Positions 1 through 59,989 of a stretch of DNA of 64,000 nucleotides are shown in pieces. Position numbers and translations under genes: made by a program. The number at the start of each line of letters is the position of its first letter. Within the stretch, counting starts at the first letter, position 1. The notes beneath the pieces were generated by a model, which saw nothing but the letters and a program-made list of their open reading frames with translations, did no database searches and was not told where the DNA came from. This DNA is from Chrysomallon squamiferum (lineage: Eukaryota; Animalia; Mollusca), in assembly GCA_012295275.1 (NCBI GenBank), contig CM022666.1:12958001-13022000 (forward strand), given 5' to 3'.

Positions 1-301
1 AACATTCACTTTGGATTTTTCCTTGATTCAAACAATCAAAAACGAAGTATCAAGGGAGACAATTCTTGTCGTCTTATCTTCTCGTTTTATATTAAATATA
101 CTGATAATAAACAATGAGATAGAATTTTCAAATTTGATGAAAATATAGGGGTAACTAAGTTTCAGTGCTCCACTAAAACTGAACTTTGATTTTATAAATA
201 AACAACAATGTCTTTGCATATATAGGATGTAATATTCATTACTATTATGTTCAGTTTTCTATAATATTTCTGTTTTCTCATTCCTTTTTTTTCAAACTTA
301 G

Positions 302-6639
<6,338 letters not shown>

Positions 6640-6785
6640 AAATTTATAAGCAATAAACAGGGATAAAATTTATTTGACGTTTTTGTAATTCTATAAAAAT
6701 ATTATTAAAGATCAGAATGTATCGCACCGATCTGTCAATCATTACCAGCAGTGCTTACATACGATAAAAATTCAAAATCTAATAG

Positions 6786-16289: not shown

Positions 16290-26385
<10,096 letters not shown>

Positions 26386-28030: not shown

Positions 28031-28680
28031 ATGATGTTTTCATTTCTTGAAAGCTTGTTGCTAAGAAGATGACCAGGAATAGTTAAAATAAACTGTTGAA
28101 TTTTAATGCAATCGTTTTGAAATGTATGGAACTCAAATGAAATAAAACTGACTTTAAAAAAGAAAGAAAATGAAAACTGAAAATGAAAACTGGACTGGAA
28201 TTAGGAAAGTCAGTTACGGAGAATATATTCGTAGTTAATATATAGTTCAAGCAGTAACGACTGCCCTGTAAAAGTACAGGAACAAAGGGACAGATGACTT
28301 CATAATGGATTAAAATAAACTTCACCATGTTTGGTCTTTTGTTGAAATGTATTTACAAAGAACTTATCTGACCTATCTAAACCACAAGTCGGTTTATTAA
28401 TATCTCGATCTAGTTCGCACATTTTATTGTTATTAAAACTTGGTTATTGATTCATAAAGAGCGTACACAAAAGATTTAGGATTGTTTACACTTCCGGTGA
28501 TGTGCAGGTGACTGGAGTAACCGGACTTTACAGAAGGGTTGGGAAAAAGATCAAAGGTGATTCAGAAGCGAGCGAGTTTACCGCAAGGGAAGTAACTCTG
28601 TTAGACATAACCACAAACAACTGTAGCGGATGAAGTCATGAATGAAAATAATAATAACAGTAACAACAACTACAAAAACT

Positions 28681-28715
<35 letters not shown>

Positions 28716-29844
28716 AATAATAGTAATAGTAGTAGTAGTAGTAGTAATAACAACAACAACAATAATAATAATAAAAATAATAATAATAATAATAAATGTT
28801 AATCAGCTTAAACCAGTAAATCATTTACACCATTTATTTATATTGCCTAAACACAAATTTTCCCGCTCAGTTAACAGTTCATTCTTTCTTTCAACCTGTT
28901 TGATATGTCTATCTGTCTGTCTGTCTATATTACTATTTATGTAACTGTCTGTCTGTGAGTTTTGTTTTCTTCATATTCTTTTCTAATCTTTATTTTATTT
29001 TTTTTGATCATTATTTTTTATTAATCTTGACTGATTTTTTTTTCTGAAAAGGTGGGGAAAACGGTTCGTGACAAAACGGCCAGATTAGCGGCATTGATTT
29101 AACTTTAAATAATCACAGATTTACATTCCATGTTTGAAGCGGTTCAGGTTGTTTTTTTATTTGAAATATTTTTTTATAGAAGTGTTCGTTAAGTCCATGT
29201 TCGAAACTTCTATACAAAAAAAAAAAAAAAAAAAAAAAAATCCGAGGACTGAAAGTTGCAGAACCAGTCGACGTTTCAGTGCTCAGTCAAAGGAACAAAG
29301 AGTTTTAACATAGCCCGAAACCTCGTGAAATCGTTTATTGTTCTCCGTTACGCAATAACAGAAATAAAAATAGTATTCTTGTTGCATCAGTAAGCTTGAT
29401 GCTGTAGTAGCTGTTGCAGTCATGGTTTTGTATATTTAATTATTGATTGATTTGTTTCACTGAGTGTTTATTTCTTTTATTATTATTATTATTTTTTTTC
29501 TTTTTCTCTTCTTTTTCTTTTTTTTTTCGTTTGTAATATCGTCTTTTCAAGACAATACCCCCCTTCTTTTTATTCATTTCTTTGTTTACCTTCTTTCCTT
29601 TTTTCTTTTATTTTCATTTTATTTTTTTAATAAATATCTATAATTCTTCGTGAACATTCGTAAACCGTCAAGATACTGGTATTACATAGCGATTTTTTTT
29701 ATGTTTTTGTTTTTTCATTGATAAAACTGTTCAAGTCTGAGTATCCGGTTACGTTCCGCTTCTTGGGTTCGACAGGGTTCGGATTCTTAGTGGCTTTTTC
29801 CGGACACCAAGTGTAACGTTTCGTTATGACAAATTTCCTATCTG

Positions 29845-29950
29845 ATTCTTTATAATGAGTTGTTTCGGCAGCAGCGTTCAGTAGCTCGGATAATATTTCT
29901 CAAGAATATTTTCCAAACGTCACTGTTTATTTATTATCTTCAACACAAAC
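29845..29950 (+). promoter_or_regulatory. Putative core promoter / 5'UTR of astacin-ShKT gene B
   Basis: TTATAAT at ~29850 followed ~28 nt later by an initiator-like TCAGT (29878), then the ATG at 29951. Confidence 0.4.
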
Positions 29951-46730
<16,780 letters not shown>

Positions 46731-47670
46731 ACCGACCACCACTGTGACAACATCTCACCGTCAACGTATAGATACAGCAAATATCAAATTCTAGACGTGC
46801 CAATAAAAAAATAGCTTAATTATTTAGTAAAAACATATATCCAGACATTTATTGTTGTTAAAGTATATCTGTGGTTGTAGGAATACATAGCTTTAATTAG
46901 AATCTTCCAAATGTTACTGAGCAACAACTTTTGCTAATAATAAAGTTTGACATTACAATAAAAAACGGAAGAAAATAACAGAAATAATTATCCCACATAT
47001 TAAGTTAAAATATTACAGAGAGTGAATAATTTACTGCAATGATTTATACCCTCATTATTTCAACATGAAAAATGCAAGATTTTCAATGACATGACGTCAT
47101 AAATAGGATAAAAAAAAAAGGTTTAATGATAATATGTTCAAGATCTTATTACGTTAATACTGTCAACCATTATTGATAGAAAATGATAAATAAAAAAAAA
47201 AAAAAAAATACATTCCAATAAATATATAAAAATATTCTAAAACCAAAAATAATTATTATTATTATTTATACCTTCAAGAAAAACAGTTTGGTAAGATACA
47301 TTTTCAATTATTATTATTATTATTTTAGTAAAGGTGTACATACGTAGTTAGCTTTAAATAAAGAAAAAATGAATCAAACGTTGTTGAGTTTTTTTATTAT
47401 TCACTTTTGAATGATAGAAAAAAAAAATCTTTAAAACCCCGAAGAAAAAAAAAAAAAAAAAAAAAAAAAAGAAGAAGAAATGAATTATAGTCCAGAGAAA
47501 TAAATAAAAGGGAAAAAAGAAACAGTGAATGAATGAATGAATGAAAAAATTAAACAATGACAGAAATGAAAAGAAATATGTGATTTAACTGAAAGTGAAA
47601 ATAAACTTTATAAACGACTATTGAATTTGACGTCCTGGACAGAAAGGAAACTAACAGTAGATGTAGTTGT

Positions 47671-47937
47671 CAGTGGCGTGCAAGGGTGTGGTGATGCCCG
47701 GGGCCAACTGCTTGATTGTCTGCCCCAAAGACTCAAGTACGAGGCCTTGTGCTGAGGAATAGTATGAGAAAGAAAGATTTTTTTGAATATGTAAACACAG
47801 ATGAAACATAAAATAAATACTTTATTCGATTTCAATGTAAATCAACCAGATTTATTAAGTTCTTTTCTCTGATTGGATGCCCCCCTATTTGGATGCCCGG
47901 GGCCACCGCCCCTTCGACCCCCCTCTGCACGCCACTG
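47671..47937. mobile_element. MITE / non-autonomous DNA transposon (~267 bp)
   Basis: Terminal inverted repeats CAGTGGCGTGCA (47671) and TGCACGCCACTG (ends 47937). Subterminal GATGCCCGGGGCCA is present twice. No ORF. It sits in a (TAG)n tract, so the target-site duplication is ambiguous (TAGTTGT vs TAGTAGT). Confidence 0.8.
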
Positions 47938-49514: not shown

Positions 49515-49577
49515 ATCTTCTATATAAACAAGTTTTTCATAGATTAGAACTCAGATTGGTTCAAATCTCGGAAAACG
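49515..49577 (+). promoter_or_regulatory. TATA box, initiator and short non-coding exon 1 of the peptide-precursor gene
   Basis: TATATAAA at 49521, TCAGATT initiator-like element at 49551 (30 nt downstream), donor ACG|GTAACT at 49577/49578, and an acceptor at 50022 just before the ATG at 50025. Confidence 0.7.
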
Positions 49578-49756
49578 GTAACTATTGTTACAGTTATTAT
49601 TATATACTGTGCTTTTCATTACTGTGTAATTGTTGATAGCGATTCTCAAGTTGTTTTTTGAGTGGTTTTTTTATTATTTTATTTATTCATTTATTTATTT
49701 ATTTACATATTTTTGTTTTGTTTTTATTTATTTTTTTGGACTACTACTACTACTTC

Positions 49757-49811
<55 letters not shown>

Positions 49812-50024
49812 CAATAATAAAAATAACAACAACAACAACAGAAGTTAAATATTAAATATTAAATCTTTATCTGTTTTAAAAGAAAAATAGTGTTTTGCCA
49901 GATTCTAAATGTCGCAAAATTTTTAAAACAAAATTAAAAAAAAAAAAAAAAAAACAATAAAATAAAATTATTTTTGATATTTTAAAAACTCATAGTAAAA
50001 AGAAAATGTTTAATTTTCACAGCA

Positions 50025-52788
50025 ATGGCAGCCAAGTTAGTTCTCTTACTGTCCGTAGCCGCATTCTGTACCGCCGTTCCTCTTGGTGAGTGTCCGAGTG
50101 TTTGTCTGTCTGTGCCTTCGTGTTTTCATCTGTCTGTGTGTCCGTGTGTTTGTCTGTTTGTATGTGTCCGTTTGTACCTCTGTCTGTGTATTCTTGTGTT
50201 TGTCGGTCTGTGTGTTCGTGTGTTTGTTTGTCTGTGTGTTCGTGTATTTGCTTGTTTGGGTGTTTGTCTGTCTGCATTTCCGTATGTCTGTGTCTCTATG
50301 TCTTGGAATATGTCTATGTGTCTGTGTTTTTAGCTGTGTGTGTCTTTCAATTCGATTTTTTTTTTTTTTATAATTTAAAGATTTTCCACAATTAGCTGTC
50401 AGTGTACAAATATGGACGTTGTTGTTACATTCCTATCTAAACAAATGTTTTTCTTGTTTAAGAAAAGAGAAACGTTCTTAAAGAACTCGAGAATCAAGAG
50501 AAGCAGGCACTTCTTCAGGCTGCCAGCGGACTCACACAAGGTTAGTGATATGTACACACACATACACACATACATACATACATACATCAACAAATACACA
50601 CACAGATATACATGCATACATATATACATACATACATACATAGATACATACACATATACACACACACATACATACACACATACATACATACATACATACA
50701 TCAACAAATACACACACAGATATACATGCATACATACATACATACATACATACACACACAGAAATACATATATTCATACATACATACGTACACCAACACA
50801 TACACAAATGCATACAAACATAATATATACATACGTACGTACATACATTCATAAGTACAAACATACATTACATACATGCATACATACATACATTATTAAG
50901 TAAGTTAGTACATAATAATTTCATGATAAAAAAAAAAAAAAAGATCTAAACCGTTATTAAATTTGCTAAACTTAACACAAAAACCAAGGATTATTTTAAC
51001 ACAATTAGTTTTGTAATTTATAGAAATCACATCCAAGGTAACCGATGCTCTTGGCAATGCTATCACTAATGGAATTTCAAACCTGTTCCACCTTGGAAAG
51101 AGAAATATCGGTGACGACTTGAAGAACATTGAAAAACAAGCTCTTCTGCAAGCCGCTGGAACTCTTACCAACCGTAAGTAACAGAAATTAAAAACAAACA
51201 AAAAATAAAAATTAATGAAATTTTAAATTTGAAAAACATGTTTACTATTCTTAAGTATCCCTCCAGTGTTTAATGGTAAACAAGGTTTTTAATAATGTCT
51301 TCAGTTTAATCATAAATGTATTAAATTTCAGAATTATTTTGTTTAAAGTATAAAGGTCAAACGGTTTCGTCAGTACACGCTTGGTTCCTGATTACTTGAA
51401 AAGTTAAAAACAATGTATAAACTTCTGAACTATTTCTTTTGAAATATTACTAAAATAAAATAATTATTTTTTAATGTATTTATTTCTAAAAACAAACGAC
51501 CAAAAAAGATTATAAAATTTATTTGTGCAGTTAACAAAGGAAGTCAAAAAAATATTATATTAAAAGATAGTTTACATATTAATATTCTTAAATCTACGGT
51601 TATAATTATGGCATATATTACGGTAAAGAACCTTGCAAACAACGAGACAGGGAACAGTCTACCGTCATGCAAAGGGTTACTCCTTCTCGTTTTATCTAAA
51701 TGCACCTTCCCACAGATAGAACAGTCTTTGATAAACGAATCGGGAGAAATCGGCTTTAATCGGAAATAGATTTAACAACATCAATCATTGAAAATTATAC
51801 AACAGACCGCTTCAGATGAACCTAATTATAATTTTTTTTTAAATCGGATGTAATATTAAACATTTATAAATTTTAATAACAGATGTTAATTATTTCTCTT
51901 TTGTTACTTAAAGAACTGACTCAACAGCTAACAGGGGCTATTGGCAGCGCTCTCACTAATGGAATTTCTGGTCTGTTTCACCTTGGAAAGAGAAATATCG
52001 GTGAAGACTTGAAGAACATTGAAAAACAAGCTCTTCTGCAAGCCGCTGGATCTCTCGCCAATAGTACGTACATTCGTAAAATTTGTGATAAATCAAAGTG
52101 GTTTTAAAACTGATAATGGTGTGTGGATATTAGATAAATAAAAGAAAGAAAGGCTTTAACCGCTGTTCTTCTGAAAATTAAAGTTAAAACTCTATATATA
52201 AAATGTACTCTTCCAGCATTCATTTATTTATTATGTCTATTATTATTATTATTTATTTATTTATTCATTTATTTATTTATTTATTTATTTATTTATTATA
52301 CTTTATTTATTTATTTACGTCTTTATTCTTTTTTGTTTCCTTCGTTCATTCTTGCTTTCTTTATTTTTATTTCTATTATTTTTATTTTATTCATTATTTA
52401 TATATATTTATTTCTTTATAATAAAAGTTATTTCACCATAACAGTTAGTTAGATACATCACAAGTATGGCGTACCCCTTTTCTTGTAAAGCTGGAACGGT
52501 CCCTGACGTTACGTTTCGTTATTTATAGCACTGACGTCAACAGTGACCGGAGCTCTTAGCAACGCTCTGACCAGTGGTCTCTCGAACCTGTTCCACGTGG
52601 GAAGAAGAAGTCTGGGCAGTGATCTGAAGGACATTGAAAAGCAAGCTCTTCTCCAGGCCGCGGGATCTCTCACAAACCGTAAGTTACGTTACTAAAACAA
52701 ACACTTTCATTTACACCTTGACTGGGTCATTATGATTCGTCAGCGATTATTGATATGAACAATTACTTTATTTTTATTTTTTGGTTAA

Positions 52789-52848
<60 letters not shown>

Positions 52849-53017
52849 TATATCATTATTATCATTATCATCATTATATTTATTATTATTATTATCATCG
52901 TCATCATCATTATATTATTATTATCATCATTATTATTATTACTATTATAATTATTATTATCATTACTATTATTATTATTATTATCATCATCATCATCATT
53001 ATTATCATTCATCATTA

Positions 53018-53064
<47 letters not shown>

Positions 53065-53709
53065 TTCTTCTTCTTTCTTCTTCTTTTTTTTTTTCTATAT
53101 TTTTCATTCTATTCTATTTACATTTTCAGAACTGACTCAGCAACTTACCGGTGCTCTGGGCAGTGCTATCAGCAGTGGAATTTCAAACCTGTTCCATCTT
53201 GGAAAGAGAAATATCGGTGAAGACTTGAAGAACATTGAAAAACAAGCTCTTCTGCAAGCCGCTGGAACTCTCACCAACCGTAAGCTATGTTAAATGTTTT
53301 ATAGACGACTCAGCATATTTTTAACTAAATATTATTAAACGTGAGTCTTATGTTTAATCGTATAAAAATTAGATGAAAGGAAACATGCTGAAGTCAGTAT
53401 GCTGGGTATTTTTCGTTTTAAATTTATCGATTAGCAAAAAGTGATGTTTTATTTGCACCTTCCCGTAGACTATGAAAAATACGAAAGTACCTTATCAGTA
53501 ACAGCAAAACAAGAATACCAACGATGATAATAATAATAATAATAGCTGTTGTTGTAGAAGATGTATCAGTAATAATAGCGGCAGAAGCAGCAACAGTAGT
53601 TGTAGTATTAATAGCAGTAGTAATATTAATTGTCATAACAAGAATAAATAAAGATTACTACTACTACTACTACTACTGCTGCTGCTACTACTACTACTAC
53701 TACTACTAC

Positions 53710-53741
<32 letters not shown>

Positions 53742-54573
53742 CATTTTTATAATGCCCGTTGTATTTCTATTGCTTTTATAAACTGAATGCAGTTTAAATA
53801 AAAATTAAATTAAATAAACGTGCTTTGTAGAACTGACTGGAGCTCTCACAAGTGGCATTGCTAACCTGTTCCACCTTGGAAAGAGAAATATCGGTGAAGA
53901 CTTGAAGAACATTGAAAAACAAGCTCTTCTCCAAGCCGCTGGAACTCTCACCAACCGTAAGCTATATTAAATATTTTATAGAAGACTCAGCATATTTTTA
54001 AGTAAATATTATTTAAAGTGAGTCATATGTTTAATCGTATAAAAATTAGATGAAAGGAAACATGCTGAAGTCAGTGTGCTGGGTATTTTTTTTTTTTTTT
54101 TAATTTTTTTTTTATCGATTAGCAAAAAGTGATGTTTTATTTGCACCTTCCCATAGACTTTGAAGAATATGATATCAGTAACAACAAAACAAGAATACCA
54201 ACGATAATAATAATAATAATAATAATAATAATAGTTGTTGTACAAGATAATAATCATAACATGAACAAATAAAGACTACTACTACTACTGCTACTACTAC
54301 TACTACTACTACTATTAATACTATTACTGCTACTACTACTAATAATACATGCCCGTGGTATTTCTATTGCTTTTATAAACTAAATGCTGTTTAAATAAAA
54401 ATTAAATTAAATAAACGTGTATTGTAGAACTGACTGGAGCTCTCACAACTGGCATTTCTAACCTGTTCCACCTTGGAAAGAGAAATTTTGGAGATGATCT
54501 GAAGAATCTTGAAAAACAAGCTATCCTCCAAGCCGCTGGAACTCTAACCAACCGTACGTTTTATACAGTTCTT

Positions 54574-54616
<43 letters not shown>

Positions 54617-54657
54617 GAAAGAGATAAATATTTTAATCGTTTTATTAAGATTTATTA

Positions 54658-54688
<31 letters not shown>

Positions 54689-54912
54689 GACGTCTGACCA
54701 ATTGTAAAACAAGTATCAAAGTTGAAAATACAGCTTATTATTTAATTCAGTATACACTTTACTCACGCTTGGTCACGTTGGTTGAATGACAGAGCAGTGC
54801 ATACCACATACATCTGTTAGGGGCACTTGGCTTGATCGGAAAATTACTATATTAGGGACTTCTAGAAATAAATGAATTAATTAATTAATACTGTCTGAAG
54901 ATGTCCTAAAAT

Positions 54913-54954
<42 letters not shown>

Positions 54955-55928
54955 TTTTTTTTTTTTTTTCTCTAAAAATTATAAATGTAATTATTAATTA
55001 TTTTTTTTTGGACAGAACTGACTGGAGCCCTCACAAGTGGCATTTCTAACCTGTTCCACCTTGGAAAGCGAGGCCTCGGTGAAGACATAAAGAACGCTGA
55101 GAAACAAGCTCTGCTCCAAGCCGCTGGATCCCTCACAAATGGCAAGTTTACAACGTTTTCCTGATTCCTGGGAAGTAAAAACATGCTTCTCTCCCTTTCT
55201 TTGCTCTCTTATTGTTTAATCTCCTAATAAACTTACGTAAATTTCTTGTTAAAGATATCTTCTCTGTGTGTATCTGTGAACTCATATCTTTTACACATTC
55301 TGCAGCCATCATTACTCTCTTTTGTTTTACGAACCTCCATTTTTGTTAATTTTTTGGCTCGTAACTGTAGACACTTTTTCAGTTTTTCATTTATTAGCCA
55401 AAATACGTGTTACAGTTTAATAAGTATCTAAAAATAGAGACGAAAAACAGAGCTATTAATAGAATGAGATCATTACGACATCAAATTAGAAAAAATAAAT
55501 TTAAATAAAAATAAAACAATCAAATAAATATGTTAAATTTGTAAGAAAACTGAATAATTAATTAACCAGTTAAAACAAATAAAGTATAAATTATAACACT
55601 ATTAATAAATATTTATTAAATGTTTCAGAACTAACACAGAAACTGACCGGTGCTCTTGGAACTGCTCTGACCAATGGAATTTCCAACCTGTTCCACTTTG
55701 GAAAACGTGATACTGGTGACTATATATAAACATATTTACAAACATACAAACATACATATATCCACACATAAACACAACATTTATGTGTATATATATATAT
55801 ATAAAGTTAATCTGACAATACACATATTATATACAAACACACACAAACCCACTCGCACAAAACCATGAGATAGAAATATACTGTGATAGTGATTACATAC
55901 TCTATCAATCAATCAGCCAGTATATAGG

Positions 55929-55959
<31 letters not shown>

Positions 55960-57145
55960 GTATATATCTATATATCTATCTATCTATATCTATGTATATA
56001 CGTATATATCTATCTATCTATCTCTCTGTCTATTAGTCTCTCTGTGTGTCTGCCTGTTTGTGTATCTGTCTTTGAATCTATCTACCTAGCTACCTGGCTA
56101 GTGATCTTTCTGTCTGTCTGTGTGTGTGTTTTAATTTTAATGTTTTCACAGTTGCTAGAAACGCTTTGACTGATGAGCTGAAGGGAATCACGACCTCCGC
56201 CGTCTCTGGTCTTGCCACGGGTTTAGTCAGCAAAGGTGAGTTCTGTATAACTGTATTACTTCGTAACAGCTTTAATATATTGTTATAAAATAAGTTAATG
56301 CTGAACAACATTATTTTATAATTAAAATAACAATTTAACATCATTAAGGATTTATTAGATTTTGTTTATTTATTTACTTACTTACTTAATTACCTGCTTT
56401 TTTATTCTTTCTTTCGTTATTAATTAATTAATTAATTTATTTATTTATTTATTTATTTATTATTATTATTATTATTTTATATACAGCTCTGTCTGGAGTT
56501 CTTGGAAGTCTTCTCGGTGGTTTGCTGGGAAAGAGAAATGAACCAGTCGACATTGTTCAGCTGAAAGCTGAGATTGTCAACAACTTGAGAAATGGTGGGC
56601 AAAAATAATGCATTAAACAATAAAGTTACTGGGAGTAGTCATTGATAATAATAATAATTTCAAAATATCAAACATAGCTTCATAAATATAACAATATAAT
56701 ATAATATAACATAATATAATGTAACGTAACGTAACGTAATGTAATATTATGTAATGTACTGCACTGTACTGAAATGTAACGTAATGTAATATATTATATT
56801 ATAAAATAATCTAATATTATATAATGTACTGCACTGTACTGAAATGTAACGTAATGTAATATATTATATTATAAAATAATCTAATATAATATCATGTACT
56901 ACACTGTACTGAAATGTAACGTAATGTAATAATAATAACGAGGATAACAAGGACAGTGTTGATGACGTATTTGTTATTGTACAGAACTGCAGAAGAGAAA
57001 CAAACTGGCTGACGAACTGAAAGGAATCACCACTTCGGCTCTCTCCGGCATTGCCACTGGACTCGTCAGCCACGGTTAGTTCTGACGTCACAAACTTTTT
57101 AATTTTTGTTTTTGTTTCAAGCGTTCTGACCGGCCATGATTAGTT

Positions 57146-57215
<70 letters not shown>

Positions 57216-57591
57216 TATACGTATGTATGTATGCGTCTGCCCATCCATTTCTTTTTTTGTTATTTATTTATTTTATTTTTTATTTGTTTATTTATTTATT
57301 CATTCATTTGGTATTTATTATATATTTATTTATTTATTTTATTTTTAATATTTATATATATATATATATATATTTTTTAAACTTTATTTGTTTATTTCCT
57401 ACTCAATCACTTATTGACTTACTTAATTATTTACTTATTTTCTATTATTTGCAAACTTTATTTGTTTATTTTTTCAATTTATTTATTTGTTTGCTTATTT
57501 TCTATTATTTATTTAATTTCTACTTATTTATTTACTTATTTACTTGTTTATTTACTTATTTTACTTACTTACTTACTTATTTACTTATTTA

Positions 57592-57641
<50 letters not shown>

Positions 57642-58999
57642 GCCCTGTCTGGTGTTGTTGGAACTCTTCTCGGAGGACTGTTAGGAAAAAGAAATGTTGT
57701 CGATGAATTTGAAAATATCGCCACTGGTGTGGCCACCGAAGTGAAGAATGGTAAATTTGATTTTTAAATTTATTATTTCATGCTAAAAGTTTTTTGATAA
57801 ATTCCTCCTTGAATTTTCATTTTTTGTTGTGTGTGTGTTTCAGTGTTTTATTTATTAATTAAATTATTCATTCGTTCATTGATATTTGTTATGAATTTAT
57901 TTATTTTATTGTACATTTATATCTTTTTTTAATATTTATATTTATTTATTTTAAACTTTATTTACCTTCTTCATCACTTATTTACCTAAATGAATACTTA
58001 CTTGTTTACTACTATTTGCAAACATCTTTACTATTTACGTACTTATATACCAGCTTACATACTTATTTACTTACTTTTTATTTACATACTTACTTATTAT
58101 TTACGTAATTCCTTACTTATTTTATACCTACTTGCTTATTTATTTACTTTTCTTTTATTTACTCATTATTTACGTACTTACTTGCTTCTTAATTATTTAC
58201 TTTGTTACTTACTTGCTTGCTTACTTACTTACTTACAGAAGTGGAAGGTGTACTTGGAGACCTGTTCGGCGGAATGTTTGGAAAAAGAAGTATTGTCGGT
58301 GAATTTGAAAATCTCGTCTCTGGAATGGTAACCGATATGAAAAATGGTAAATTTGATTTTTAAATTCATGAATTTCGTGCTAAAACCTCTTTTTTATTAT
58401 TTATTTATTTATTTACTTTTTTGTGTGTTTTGTTTATTTATTATTTATTTTATTTTATTTTATTATATTTTATTTTATTTTTGTTTTAAGTTGGATTTTT
58501 TTTGTTGGTTTTTTTGTATTTATTTTTTTTTTGTATTTTTTTCTTTATTTTATTTTATTTTACTTTATTTTATTTTATTTTTATTTTATGTATTATTTTA
58601 CTTTATTTATTTATTATTATTTGGTTACACACACATGTACATATATGATATATACACAAACACAAAATTAAAAAGTTCACTAAATGAATTAAACCGTACC
58701 ACTTGATATTCAATATCGTACAACGTTTGTTTTATTTTTAGTTAATTATTCATCTATTTAGTTAGTTAGGTAGGTAGATTGTTATTTGGCTACTTAGTTA
58801 ATTATTTATTTATCTATTTTAGTTGGTTAGGTAGGTAGGTAGGTAGGAATGTCGTTAGTTCGTTACTGAGTTAGTCAGTTGGTTGGTTAGTTGGTTAGTT
58901 TATTCTGATGTTTTGTTTATAAATGCAGAAGTGTCAGAAAAACTGCCAGAAATCGTTGAATCAACAATCAGCAAATTCATCCCATTCAAGTTCTTTTAA
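50025..58999 (+). CDS. Unrecognised secreted multi-copy precursor of long amidated amphipathic peptides (~590 aa)
   Basis: Coding exons 50025-50085, 50463-50540, 51024-51173, 51914-52063, 52529-52678, 53130-53279, 53831-53956, 54428-54553, 55016-55141 (GC donor), 55629-55715, 56152-56235, 56487-56594, 56985-57074, 57643-57750, 58239-58346, 58929-58999 (TAA). Total 1773 nt in one open frame, all introns phase 1. Signal peptide MAAKLVLLLSVAAFCTA, then repeats separated by KR, with GKR/GRR amidation signals 11 times. 3'UTR intron 59003-59299; AATAAA at 59376. Confidence 0.92.
53130..54553 (+). repeat. Recent tandem duplication of exon+intron units in the peptide gene
   Basis: Introns 53280-53830 and 53957-54427 align along their length (GTAAGCTAT.TTAAAT.TTTTATAGA.GACTCAGCATATTTTTAA... 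to ...AAATTAAATTAAATAAACGTG...TTGTAG), and the flanking exons are near-identical. Confidence 0.9.
56754..56930. repeat. Intronic 70-bp tandem repeat (~2.5 copies)
   Basis: ATGTACTGCACTGTACTGAAATGTAACGTAATGTAAT... at ~56754, 56824 and 56894. Confidence 0.85.
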
Positions 59000-59989
59000 A
59001 TAGTAAGTATTTTCATCGTCATCATTATTATTATTATTATTATTATTACTATTATTATTATTATTATTATTACTATTATTATTATTATTACTATTATTGA
59101 CGATATTATTGTTATTATTGCTGTCATTGTTGTTATTAGTTAACAGACACAGATACATGCATAAATATATAGACATACATACATACGTACAACATACATA
59201 CATACATGCATACACACATACATATATACATGTGTATGTGTTTTAATAATATAGTTTCACGTGTAAATTATGTTAATGTTACTTTCATTTATATTTCAGG
59301 TAGGATAATGTATAATGATAAAATCAATTAATGTTGGCTGAAAAATTATGTAACAATCATTTAGCAAAAAAAATGAATAAAAATTAAATTTGATACTGCG
59401 TTGTTTTGTTGATCTTATGACAGCTGAATGTCGCCTGTCCCAGTATAAAACTAATAAAATAAAAAATAAAAATAAATAAATAAATAAACAAGAAAAAAAA
59501 AAAGAAAGAAAGAAGAAGAAGAAATACGAACCTTATTCACTGGATAGGTGATGCATACGAAGAAAATATAAATGCAAATACATAATCATTATATACATAA
59601 ACATTGATATAGCACGTTCTAACAGATATAGATGTATCCGAATAGCCATTCATAGACAAACAAATAGATAGACACACATCCACCATCCATCCATCCAGGC
59701 ATCCAAACATTGATTCATTCGTCTATTCTTTCCTATATACGTAATACATACAGTTTTTGAGTGATCGTCAAGGAATTAATGTAAACAAAAACAAAGGAAA
59801 TTACGTCATCAATCGTAAAGAAAAGTCGACCATCACGCCATCTGTTGTTACAATAATAAAATTGGTACAAATTTTACCAGTCTTACTAAAATACAAATAA
59901 TGTTCGTTTACGAAGAATGAATATAATTTTATTTTAAAAGTAAAGAGAAATAAAGGTAGCATTATTTTGTATTCTTTTATTATTATATA

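Follow-up and report, generated by a model that had tools for sequence, protein, structure and literature searches.

The 64,000-nucleotide stretch of the Chrysomallon squamiferum (scaly-foot snail) genome analyzed here (assembly GCA_012295275.1, contig CM022666.1, positions 12,958,001 to 13,022,000; hereafter the window) carries a gene, on the forward strand at 50025-58999, for a 590-residue precursor, which probably enters the secretory route and yields 13 long peptides after cleavage, 11 of which are predicted to be amidated. Homologues with conserved cleavage and amidation sites are found in Gigantopelta and in abalones (Haliotis), and together they appear to form a family of multi-copy amidated-helix precursors, unusual in length, charge and helical register, in a lineage for which none was found described.

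The precursor gene and its predicted products

An original prediction, made from this sequence alone, had placed 16 coding exons at 50025-58999, and these join into an open frame of 590 residues. The precursor contains 13 [KR]R sites, 11 of them preceded by glycine (G[KR]R), and neither number was reached in 10,000 shuffles of the sequence (shuffle maxima of 7 and 3, respectively). Fourteen of its 16 arginines sit in dibasic sites and Arg is nearly absent from the predicted peptides. The N-terminus follows a basic-hydrophobic-small pattern, as judged by eye for the window and five homologues, and the sole cysteine of the precursor lies within this putative signal peptide.

The 13 predicted products comprise eight class A, two class B and three class C peptides. 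Five class A peptides have 47 residues and three have 39, exactly as counted in the original prediction, and the three sequences quoted there are correct to the letter. The class B peptides (B1 and B2, 39 residues) end in LLGGLL-G-KR, the length of B1 requiring a monobasic cut after a DTVAR spacer, and the acidic class C consists of C1 (22 residues, no Gly), C2 (33 residues, G-KR) and C3 (42 residues, free C-terminus). Gly, Ala, Ser and Thr make up 30 to 50% of the predicted peptides. The average masses calculated for amidated products are 4862.5 (A2), 4091.6 (A5), 4869.4 (A8) and 3747.3 (B2), and the H. rubra repeats come to about 6.7 kDa. The description of the peptides as Cys-free and about neutral also stands: side-chain charge is −2 to −1 for class A, 0 for class B and −6 to −2 for class C (+3 in Gigantopelta aegis and −4 to +1 in Haliotis), and with a free N-terminus and a C-terminal amide the net charge of class A would be close to zero.

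Spliced transcripts, which the original prediction had proposed as a check, are present in the two RNA data sets among the 19 sequencing runs listed (X8 and X9, from one study labelled metatranscriptomic). Compared with positions 50990-52200, contigs from both runs cover two exons and not the intron; the joint between exons 3 and 4 (51173>51914, GT..AG) and a loose end matching the end of exon 2 occur in both, and X9 additionally contains letters matching the joint between exons 5 and 6, as well as one that leads into a short exon. The contigs carry no information on expression level or tissue. In runs X10-X19 the shares of matching sequence words were 0.06 or lower, with X18 giving short intronic matches only. 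RNA variants differ from the window at 51057, 51106 and 51996, the A>G change at 51057 also occurring in DNA run X2, and one RNA loose end would read G-KR-N-L-G-D-D. The variants suggest alleles or variation in repeat number; the Haliotis rubra homologue has at least 15 annotated isoforms that differ by whole repeats.

The features of the gene are listed below. RNA support is limited to the few junctions given above, so that the remaining introns, and the lines with no mention of RNA, rest on sequence.

49521..49577, + strand: TATA box at 49521, Inr-like (initiator-like) TCAGA at 49551 and a likely non-coding first exon running to a GT donor at 49578
50023..50085, + strand: coding exon 1, with ATG at 50025, signal-peptide-like residues 1-17 (by eye) and VPL
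50463..50540, + strand: exon 2, E-KR site and N-half of A1; its final 30 nucleotides are seen in X8 and X9 as a loose end of RNA that continues into exon 3
51024..51173, + strand: exon 3, C-half of A1, G-KR, N-half of A2; RNA contigs, joint 51173>51914 (GT..AG) in X8 and X9
51914..52063, + strand: exon 4, C-half of A2, G-KR, N-half of A3; sequence and RNA
52529..52678, + strand: exon 5, C-half of A3, G-RR, N-half of A4; letters of the exon 5>6 junction in RNA run X9
53130..53279, + strand: exon 6, C-half of A4, G-KR, N-half of A5
53831..53956, + strand: exon 7 (short, 126-nucleotide repeat), C-half of A5, G-KR, N-half of A6
54428..54553, + strand: exon 8, C-half of A6, G-KR, N-half of A7
55016..55141, + strand: exon 9, C-half of A7, G-KR, N-half of A8; GC donor
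55629..55715, + strand: exon 10, C-half of A8, G-KR, start of the DTVAR spacer
56152-56235, 56487-56594, 56985-57074 and 57643-57750, + strand: exons 11-14, B1, B2, C1 and the start of C2
58239-58346 and 58929-58999, + strand: exons 15-16, C2 and C3, with the stop codon at 58997-58999
59300..59381, + strand: likely 3' untranslated exon, AATAAA at 59376 (donor 59003, acceptor 59299)

The TATA box and an initiator-like site are thus present as the original prediction had them. With the non-coding first exon and the 3' untranslated exon the gene likely has 18 exons in all; a short 5' untranslated exon fits the RNA loose ends, which reach 152 and 149 nucleotides upstream of exon 3 and so exceed the 139 nucleotides left in coding exons 1-2.

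All 15 introns of the precursor are in phase 1 and 14 are GT-AG, the other being GC-AG (the GC donor is at 55142, where sister exons carry GT). As most introns fall inside a peptide, one repeat exon encodes the C-half of one peptide, its G-KR site and the N-half of the next. Exons 3-9 show 71 to 95% identity in the portion common to them, and introns 6 and 7 resemble each other at 75%, from which growth of the array by exon duplication can be deduced, the intron likeness indicating a recent event. The repeats' amino acids are constrained by purifying selection, given a pooled pN/pS (proportions of nonsynonymous to synonymous differences) of 0.25 across 21 repeat-exon pairs; pairwise dN/dS is 0.07 to 0.34.

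Relatives in Gigantopelta and Haliotis

Exon 6 compared with 1.84 billion representative sequences gave two matches, both gastropod and both 'uncharacterized': LOC124112657 of Haliotis rufescens (E = 2.6e-7) and LOC121367530 of G. aegis (E = 7.5e-4). That both come from the snail's own part of the gastropod tree gives them added weight. A profile including one stretch of each of these first matches found seven proteins among 7993 candidates scored, namely H. rufescens LOC124112657 and another isoform of it, G. aegis LOC121367530, H. rubra LOC124281015, H. asinina XP_067668589, H. cracherodii XP_071086309 and an entry from ENA (P0023, on a contig of 63,553 nucleotides). The last reads as a single exon of a close homologue, in the same register and 62% identical; this exon ends in LGNIL-G-KR, without His.

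Because the Haliotis E-values of that search are circular and inflated by repeats, single-peptide tests were made, on pre-selected targets. A Haliotis-only profile scored five class A peptides of the window at 9.6 to 11.9 bits (equalled by 0 to 4 of 500 pattern-preserving shuffles) and the G. aegis peptide at 23 bits (none of 500), and the reverse test gave 8.4 to 10.6 bits (1 to 7 of 500). Scored with the class A or Haliotis profiles, class B and C peptides did not stand out from pattern-preserving shuffles (15 to 262 of 500), and a class B profile scored A2 and C2 (1 and 0 of 500 shuffles, respectively), so a common origin of the three classes is only suggested. A tree of the repeats, for which class C, a single segment of G. 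aegis and identical rows were set aside, is poorly resolved, with 25 of its 37 inner branches open; it supports no more than the grouping of the eight class A repeats (99/100) and the mixing of Haliotis repeats across species.

The homologues share with the window precursor a signal-like N-terminus followed by Cys-free, amphipathic tandem repeats, and the Gly before the basic site is conserved in all five. Their repeats end in L-[SA]-[NK]-L-F-H-(x)-G-[KR]-R, with LF[HQN]x-G-[KR]R present in 4 copies in G. aegis, 8 in H. rufescens, 10 in H. rubra and 7 each in H. asinina and H. cracherodii, and class A, like most of the homologue repeats, retains a His close to the predicted amide. The homologue peptides are longer, however (61 to 66 residues, against 22 to 47 in the window), carry a central P-[YF], are often freed by a short spacer ending in R, and are followed by a helical tail of 90 to 100 residues for which the window precursor has no counterpart. 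This tail (the C-termini of P0017, P0019, P0021 and P0022) is non-repeated, amphipathic and non-amidated and may be a folded helical domain. None of these homologues has a described function, and the label 'AtaA-like adhesin' of the H. asinina homologue is an automatic name. Conservation of cleavage and amidation sites in six lineages, together with the spliced transcripts, upholds the polyprotein and secretion model of the original prediction at the level of predicted processing.

Profile, structure and literature searches point to no characterized family. Pfam returned none for any of 11 window exons scanned, and sequence searches of the PDB gave best E-values of 0.21 for exon 6 and 1.3 for an A2 profile, and nothing for a Haliotis peptide. 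Antimicrobial_2 was seen on Haliotis repeats at E = 0.004 to 0.12 (13 to 18 bits against a cut-off of 22) and not in the window; other Pfam matches on Haliotis proteins (CHD1-like_C, Mu Gam, RHH and others) had no passing stretch and were rejected as repeat-summed noise. The ESM Atlas gave only tape-measure and hypothetical matches below 0.9, and structure rows held no family above the bar. None of 84 candidates of a single-exon word search scored, and none of 599 and 295 pattern matches in two JGI metagenome scans was confirmed. Locus identifiers, motifs and concepts led to no description of the family in the full text of open-licence PubMed Central and bioRxiv articles, an index to which supplements do not belong; the available parts of PMC6523705, PMC11871041 and PMC7895826 held no motif match, and the published supplements for G. 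aegis give neither a sequence nor a RefSeq identifier for the homologue. A description in a subscription journal or a supplement is possible. The novelty claimed in the original prediction thus stands insofar as the family is undescribed and matches no characterized precursor, but the gene is not an orphan, having relatives in abalones and Gigantopelta.

The window also contains a complete calpain-5-like gene (16290-26382, + strand, 12 matched pieces), closest to that of G. aegis, with a bit sum of 1110 where ten other sequences reach 953 at most, which places the window in a neomphaline gastropod. The homologue and a calpain-5 lie on scaffolds of equal length in G. aegis, H. asinina and H. 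cracherodii (three of five species; not in H. rufescens or H. rubra), which is supporting evidence only, as calpain-5 paralogues exist and chromosomes are few. Two astacin metalloprotease genes flank the calpain (about 300-6700 and 28400-47800, + strand; HExxHxxGxxH at 3832 and 34032), the second with at least six ShK-like exons (36117-46617) and an end about 2 kb ahead of the peptide gene. No paralogue of the precursor was found by tblastn in the rest of the window (best E 3.1). Introns across the window (1-64000) are dense in microsatellites (246 tandem-repeat rows), and GC content drops to about 24% downstream of the peptide gene.

Helical periodicity and skin enrichment

Large hydrophobic residues recur mostly at every fourth position in the peptides. 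The hydrophobic periodicity peaks at 94° for class A, 91° for class B, 95° for class C (a broad peak), 95° for G. aegis and 95 to 96° for Haliotis, and in all seven peptides tested the helical-range signal exceeded that of shuffles (0 to 10 of 1000 as high), shuffles being the reference here and not a control set of other amphipathic peptides. A straight surface helix corresponds to 100°, a heptad repeat to 103°, an 11-mer repeat to 98° and a right-handed supercoil of 15/4 to 19/5 geometry to 96 to 95°. Power at 98° (Eisenberg scale) is about half of the peak or less for class A, class B, G. aegis and Haliotis, class C being broad. A periodicity of 91 to 96° speaks for helices bundled in a right-handed sense and not for helices lying flat on a surface. 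AlphaFold2 predicted one continuous helix both for the exon-6 stretch (pLDDT, the predicted local distance difference test, 76) and for a 64-residue H. rubra peptide (pLDDT 88); as the folded window stretch is a single exon and each window peptide spans two, it is not a whole peptide, and such single-helix predictions say little. Neither Foldseek, with no match, nor VIA-align, with generic long helices at Z ≤ 6.9, was informative.

A published scaly-foot gene model, CsqKR_Scaf102_2.22, carries the repeat of this gene. The part of the supplements of PMC7142155 that covers it gives a 42-residue repeat unit in 2.98 copies over residues 1-125. By eye, this unit is identical to window exons 7, 8 and 9 at 39, 38 and 37 of 42 positions, and every letter of it occurs in one of the three, so that it reads as their consensus; from this letter-by-letter match, the published model probably begins only at exon 7, with no signal peptide. 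The astacin gene Scaf102_2.18 is a near neighbour of Scaf102_2.22, just as an astacin gene lies near the precursor in the window. Scaf102_2.18 is itself oesophageal-gland-high. In the same material the model is unannotated, listed as novel and included among the genes high in the scale-secreting epithelium, at a mean of 3811 against 333, a fold change of 3.1 and a false discovery rate (FDR) of 0.040 (PMC7142155, in part); the passages of the article covered here do not discuss it, and it is missing from the lists for mantle, oesophageal gland and vent comparison. The skin list also includes the amidating lyase PAL (fold change 2.2, FDR 0.026), which is in the mantle list too (PMC7142155, in part).

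Proposed function, alternatives and significance

The reading we prefer, and which we hold to have about an even chance, is that the gene supplies an epidermal battery of membrane- or surface-active host-defence peptides, comparable to dermcidin, the β-type phenol-soluble modulins (PSMs) and frog-skin peptides, and not related to them by sequence. The precursor would enter the secretory granules of epidermal gland cells, be cut at KR/RR by a convertase, trimmed by a carboxypeptidase and amidated by PAM, and be released as a mixture of long amphipathic peptides presumed to fold as helices. With less support, these may assemble into right-handed bundles that insert in lipid or spread at interfaces, and the bundles would kill or detach microbes or biofilm at the body surface. 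Since the net charge is about zero and the hydrophobic stripe (91 to 96°) winds round the helix, bundle assembly rather than membrane carpeting by charge would be expected. The conserved C-terminal His possibly aids assembly, and the acidic class C may buffer the peptide set during storage.

The high copy number of long Cys-free helices fits a bulk-acting secretion, and retention of the same design while peptide length and middle sequence change favours such a defence battery. The near-absence of Arg from the predicted peptides, the purifying selection, the helical periodicity, the continuous helices of AlphaFold2 and the skin enrichment of the matching scaly-foot gene and of PAL also count in its favour. 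A membrane-active or defensive function is suggested by analogy, for which non-cationic dermcidin (48 residues) and the β-type PSMs (45 residues) would serve as precedents. Dermcidin DCD-1L is an anionic, helical, salt-tolerant skin peptide of 48 residues that forms a Zn-dependent hexamer (PMC9243558, in part); one peptide is released per 110-residue precursor, in contrast to 13 predicted in the snail, and no sequence match appeared in the PDB searches. The β-type PSMs are amphipathic helices of about 45 residues that disperse biofilm (PMC11178275, in part), but they are encoded by separate tandem bacterial genes, with no polyprotein, signal peptide or amide, whereas the snail gene is an intron-containing gastropod one, and the likeness is an analogy only. 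Frog-skin peptides such as magainin and bombinin/maximin H are made as precursors of comparable design and are about 20 to 30 residues long and mostly cationic. They share skin secretion, C-terminal amides and processing at basic sites with the snail precursor as predicted, and differ in that the snail peptides have 22 to 47 residues (61 to 66 in homologues), a charge of −6 to +3 and no significant sequence match. The class B ends resemble the Leu/Gly-rich maximin-H5 among the mature sequences given in PMC10048636. The original prediction's comparison with β-type PSMs and frog-skin peptides therefore holds as a proposed functional likeness and does not extend to sequence kinship. Among mollusc peptides, myticalins, also Cys-free, are cationic, hypervariable and released singly from each precursor, in which a conserved signal and a C-terminal propeptide enclose the peptide (PMC5577615, in part), unlike the thirteen neutral or acidic peptides of the snail precursor; molluscidins are Cys-free and linear but non-amphipathic; and the gastropod antimicrobial peptides in the available part of a 2025 review are few, mostly short or protein-derived, and none has the design of the snail precursor (PMC11767717).

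Several points weigh against a defence battery. Most membrane-lytic peptides are cationic, whereas the peptides of this family, those of G. aegis (+3) apart, range from neutral to acidic; many defence-peptide families are under diversifying, not purifying, selection. Taken one by one, the peptides show modest homology to Haliotis. Enrichment in the skin is both borderline and variable, with a model fold change of 3.1 against a mean ratio of 11; it comes from a partial gene model and from a comparison of five tissues that do not include ganglia, gonad or haemocytes. A neuroendocrine convertase is in the mantle list only, and a gene annotated 'neuropeptide precursor' is also in the skin list (PMC7142155, in part), so that the PAL enrichment need not serve the peptide gene.

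The neuropeptide precursor in the skin list would suit a signalling role, in which long amidated helical hormones or pheromones act on a receptor as ELH, DH44 and CRF do. The KR and Gly processing sites, the 39- to 47-residue size and the conserved amidated C-terminus agree with it, as does the I-x-x-D-L-K-x-I start that class A shares by eye with Aplysia ELH; DH44/ELH precursors contain up to 16 copies, and multi-copy DH44 is found in lophotrochozoans (PMC6425005, in part). However, ELH and CRF Pfam profiles gave no match at E ≤ 1 in 11 window exons and three whole homologues (the window half of this result is weakened because exons split the peptides), the C-half is uncharged where that of ELH is highly charged, and peptide length varies from 39 to 66 residues. 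The motifs were not found in the available part of an abalone ganglia neuropeptide supplement, and identity with LASGLV-amide was rejected since the scaly-foot LASGL-amide neuropeptide is a different gene. On this balance signalling seems unlikely. A structural or surfactant secretion, forming right-handed coiled-coil fibres or a surface film for wetting, anti-fouling or adhesion without killing cells, is also an improbable explanation, if a somewhat more serviceable one: it would account for the strict four-residue register with its family peak of 91 to 96° (15/4 to 19/5 geometry), for the neutral charge and the 30 to 50% G/A/S/T, for enrichment of the matching gene in the sclerite-secreting epithelium, and for length steps of eight residues (47 versus 39) that keep the register. 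Conserved amidation donors and precise peptide release are nevertheless unusual for structural proteins, and the family also occurs in Gigantopelta and abalones, neither of which has scales.

Two further explanations carry less weight. Apolipoprotein-like helices that solubilize or move lipids or hydrophobic compounds would fit the Pfam matches of the G. aegis homologue (ApoA-II at E = 7.9e-18 over four stretches; Apolipoprotein at E = 1.4e-8, below cut-off) and the arrangement of Lys near the polar/non-polar boundary with Asp and Glu mostly on the polar side. The ApoA-II score, though, is a sum over four near-identical repeats in G. aegis only, with none in the 11 window exons or in two Haliotis proteins, the periodicity is 94 to 96° and not the 98° of 11-mer repeats, and amidation is not an apolipoprotein feature, which makes lipid carriage very unlikely. 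Least probable, and only barely credible, is a deterrent of predators or fouling larvae that is cytolytic to animal cells rather than microbes, to which the preference of neutral amphipathic helices for zwitterionic membranes and the skin enrichment of the matching gene would lend themselves.

Within host defence, a bolder version, which we regard as unlikely, would make the family an ancient means of skin defence in gastropods, common to vent snails and abalones. A single gene would then supply a mixture of long, uncharged, amidated helices that co-assemble into right-handed, His/metal-assisted membrane bundles, and with it vent snails would select the microbial colonizers of foot and scales. 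Were this true, the system would be salt-proof in seawater, since it would act without net positive charge.

A conserved multi-copy family of predicted amidated helices of 39 to 66 residues thus emerges in abalones, which are farmed and disease-prone, and in vent snails. As the peptides have defined masses to look for and can be synthesized, gastropod skin protection in seawater becomes directly testable. A design can now be assigned to a 'novel' scaly-foot skin gene whose published model seems truncated, and, whatever function is eventually established, peptide assembly based on a shared 91 to 96° register would be unusual.

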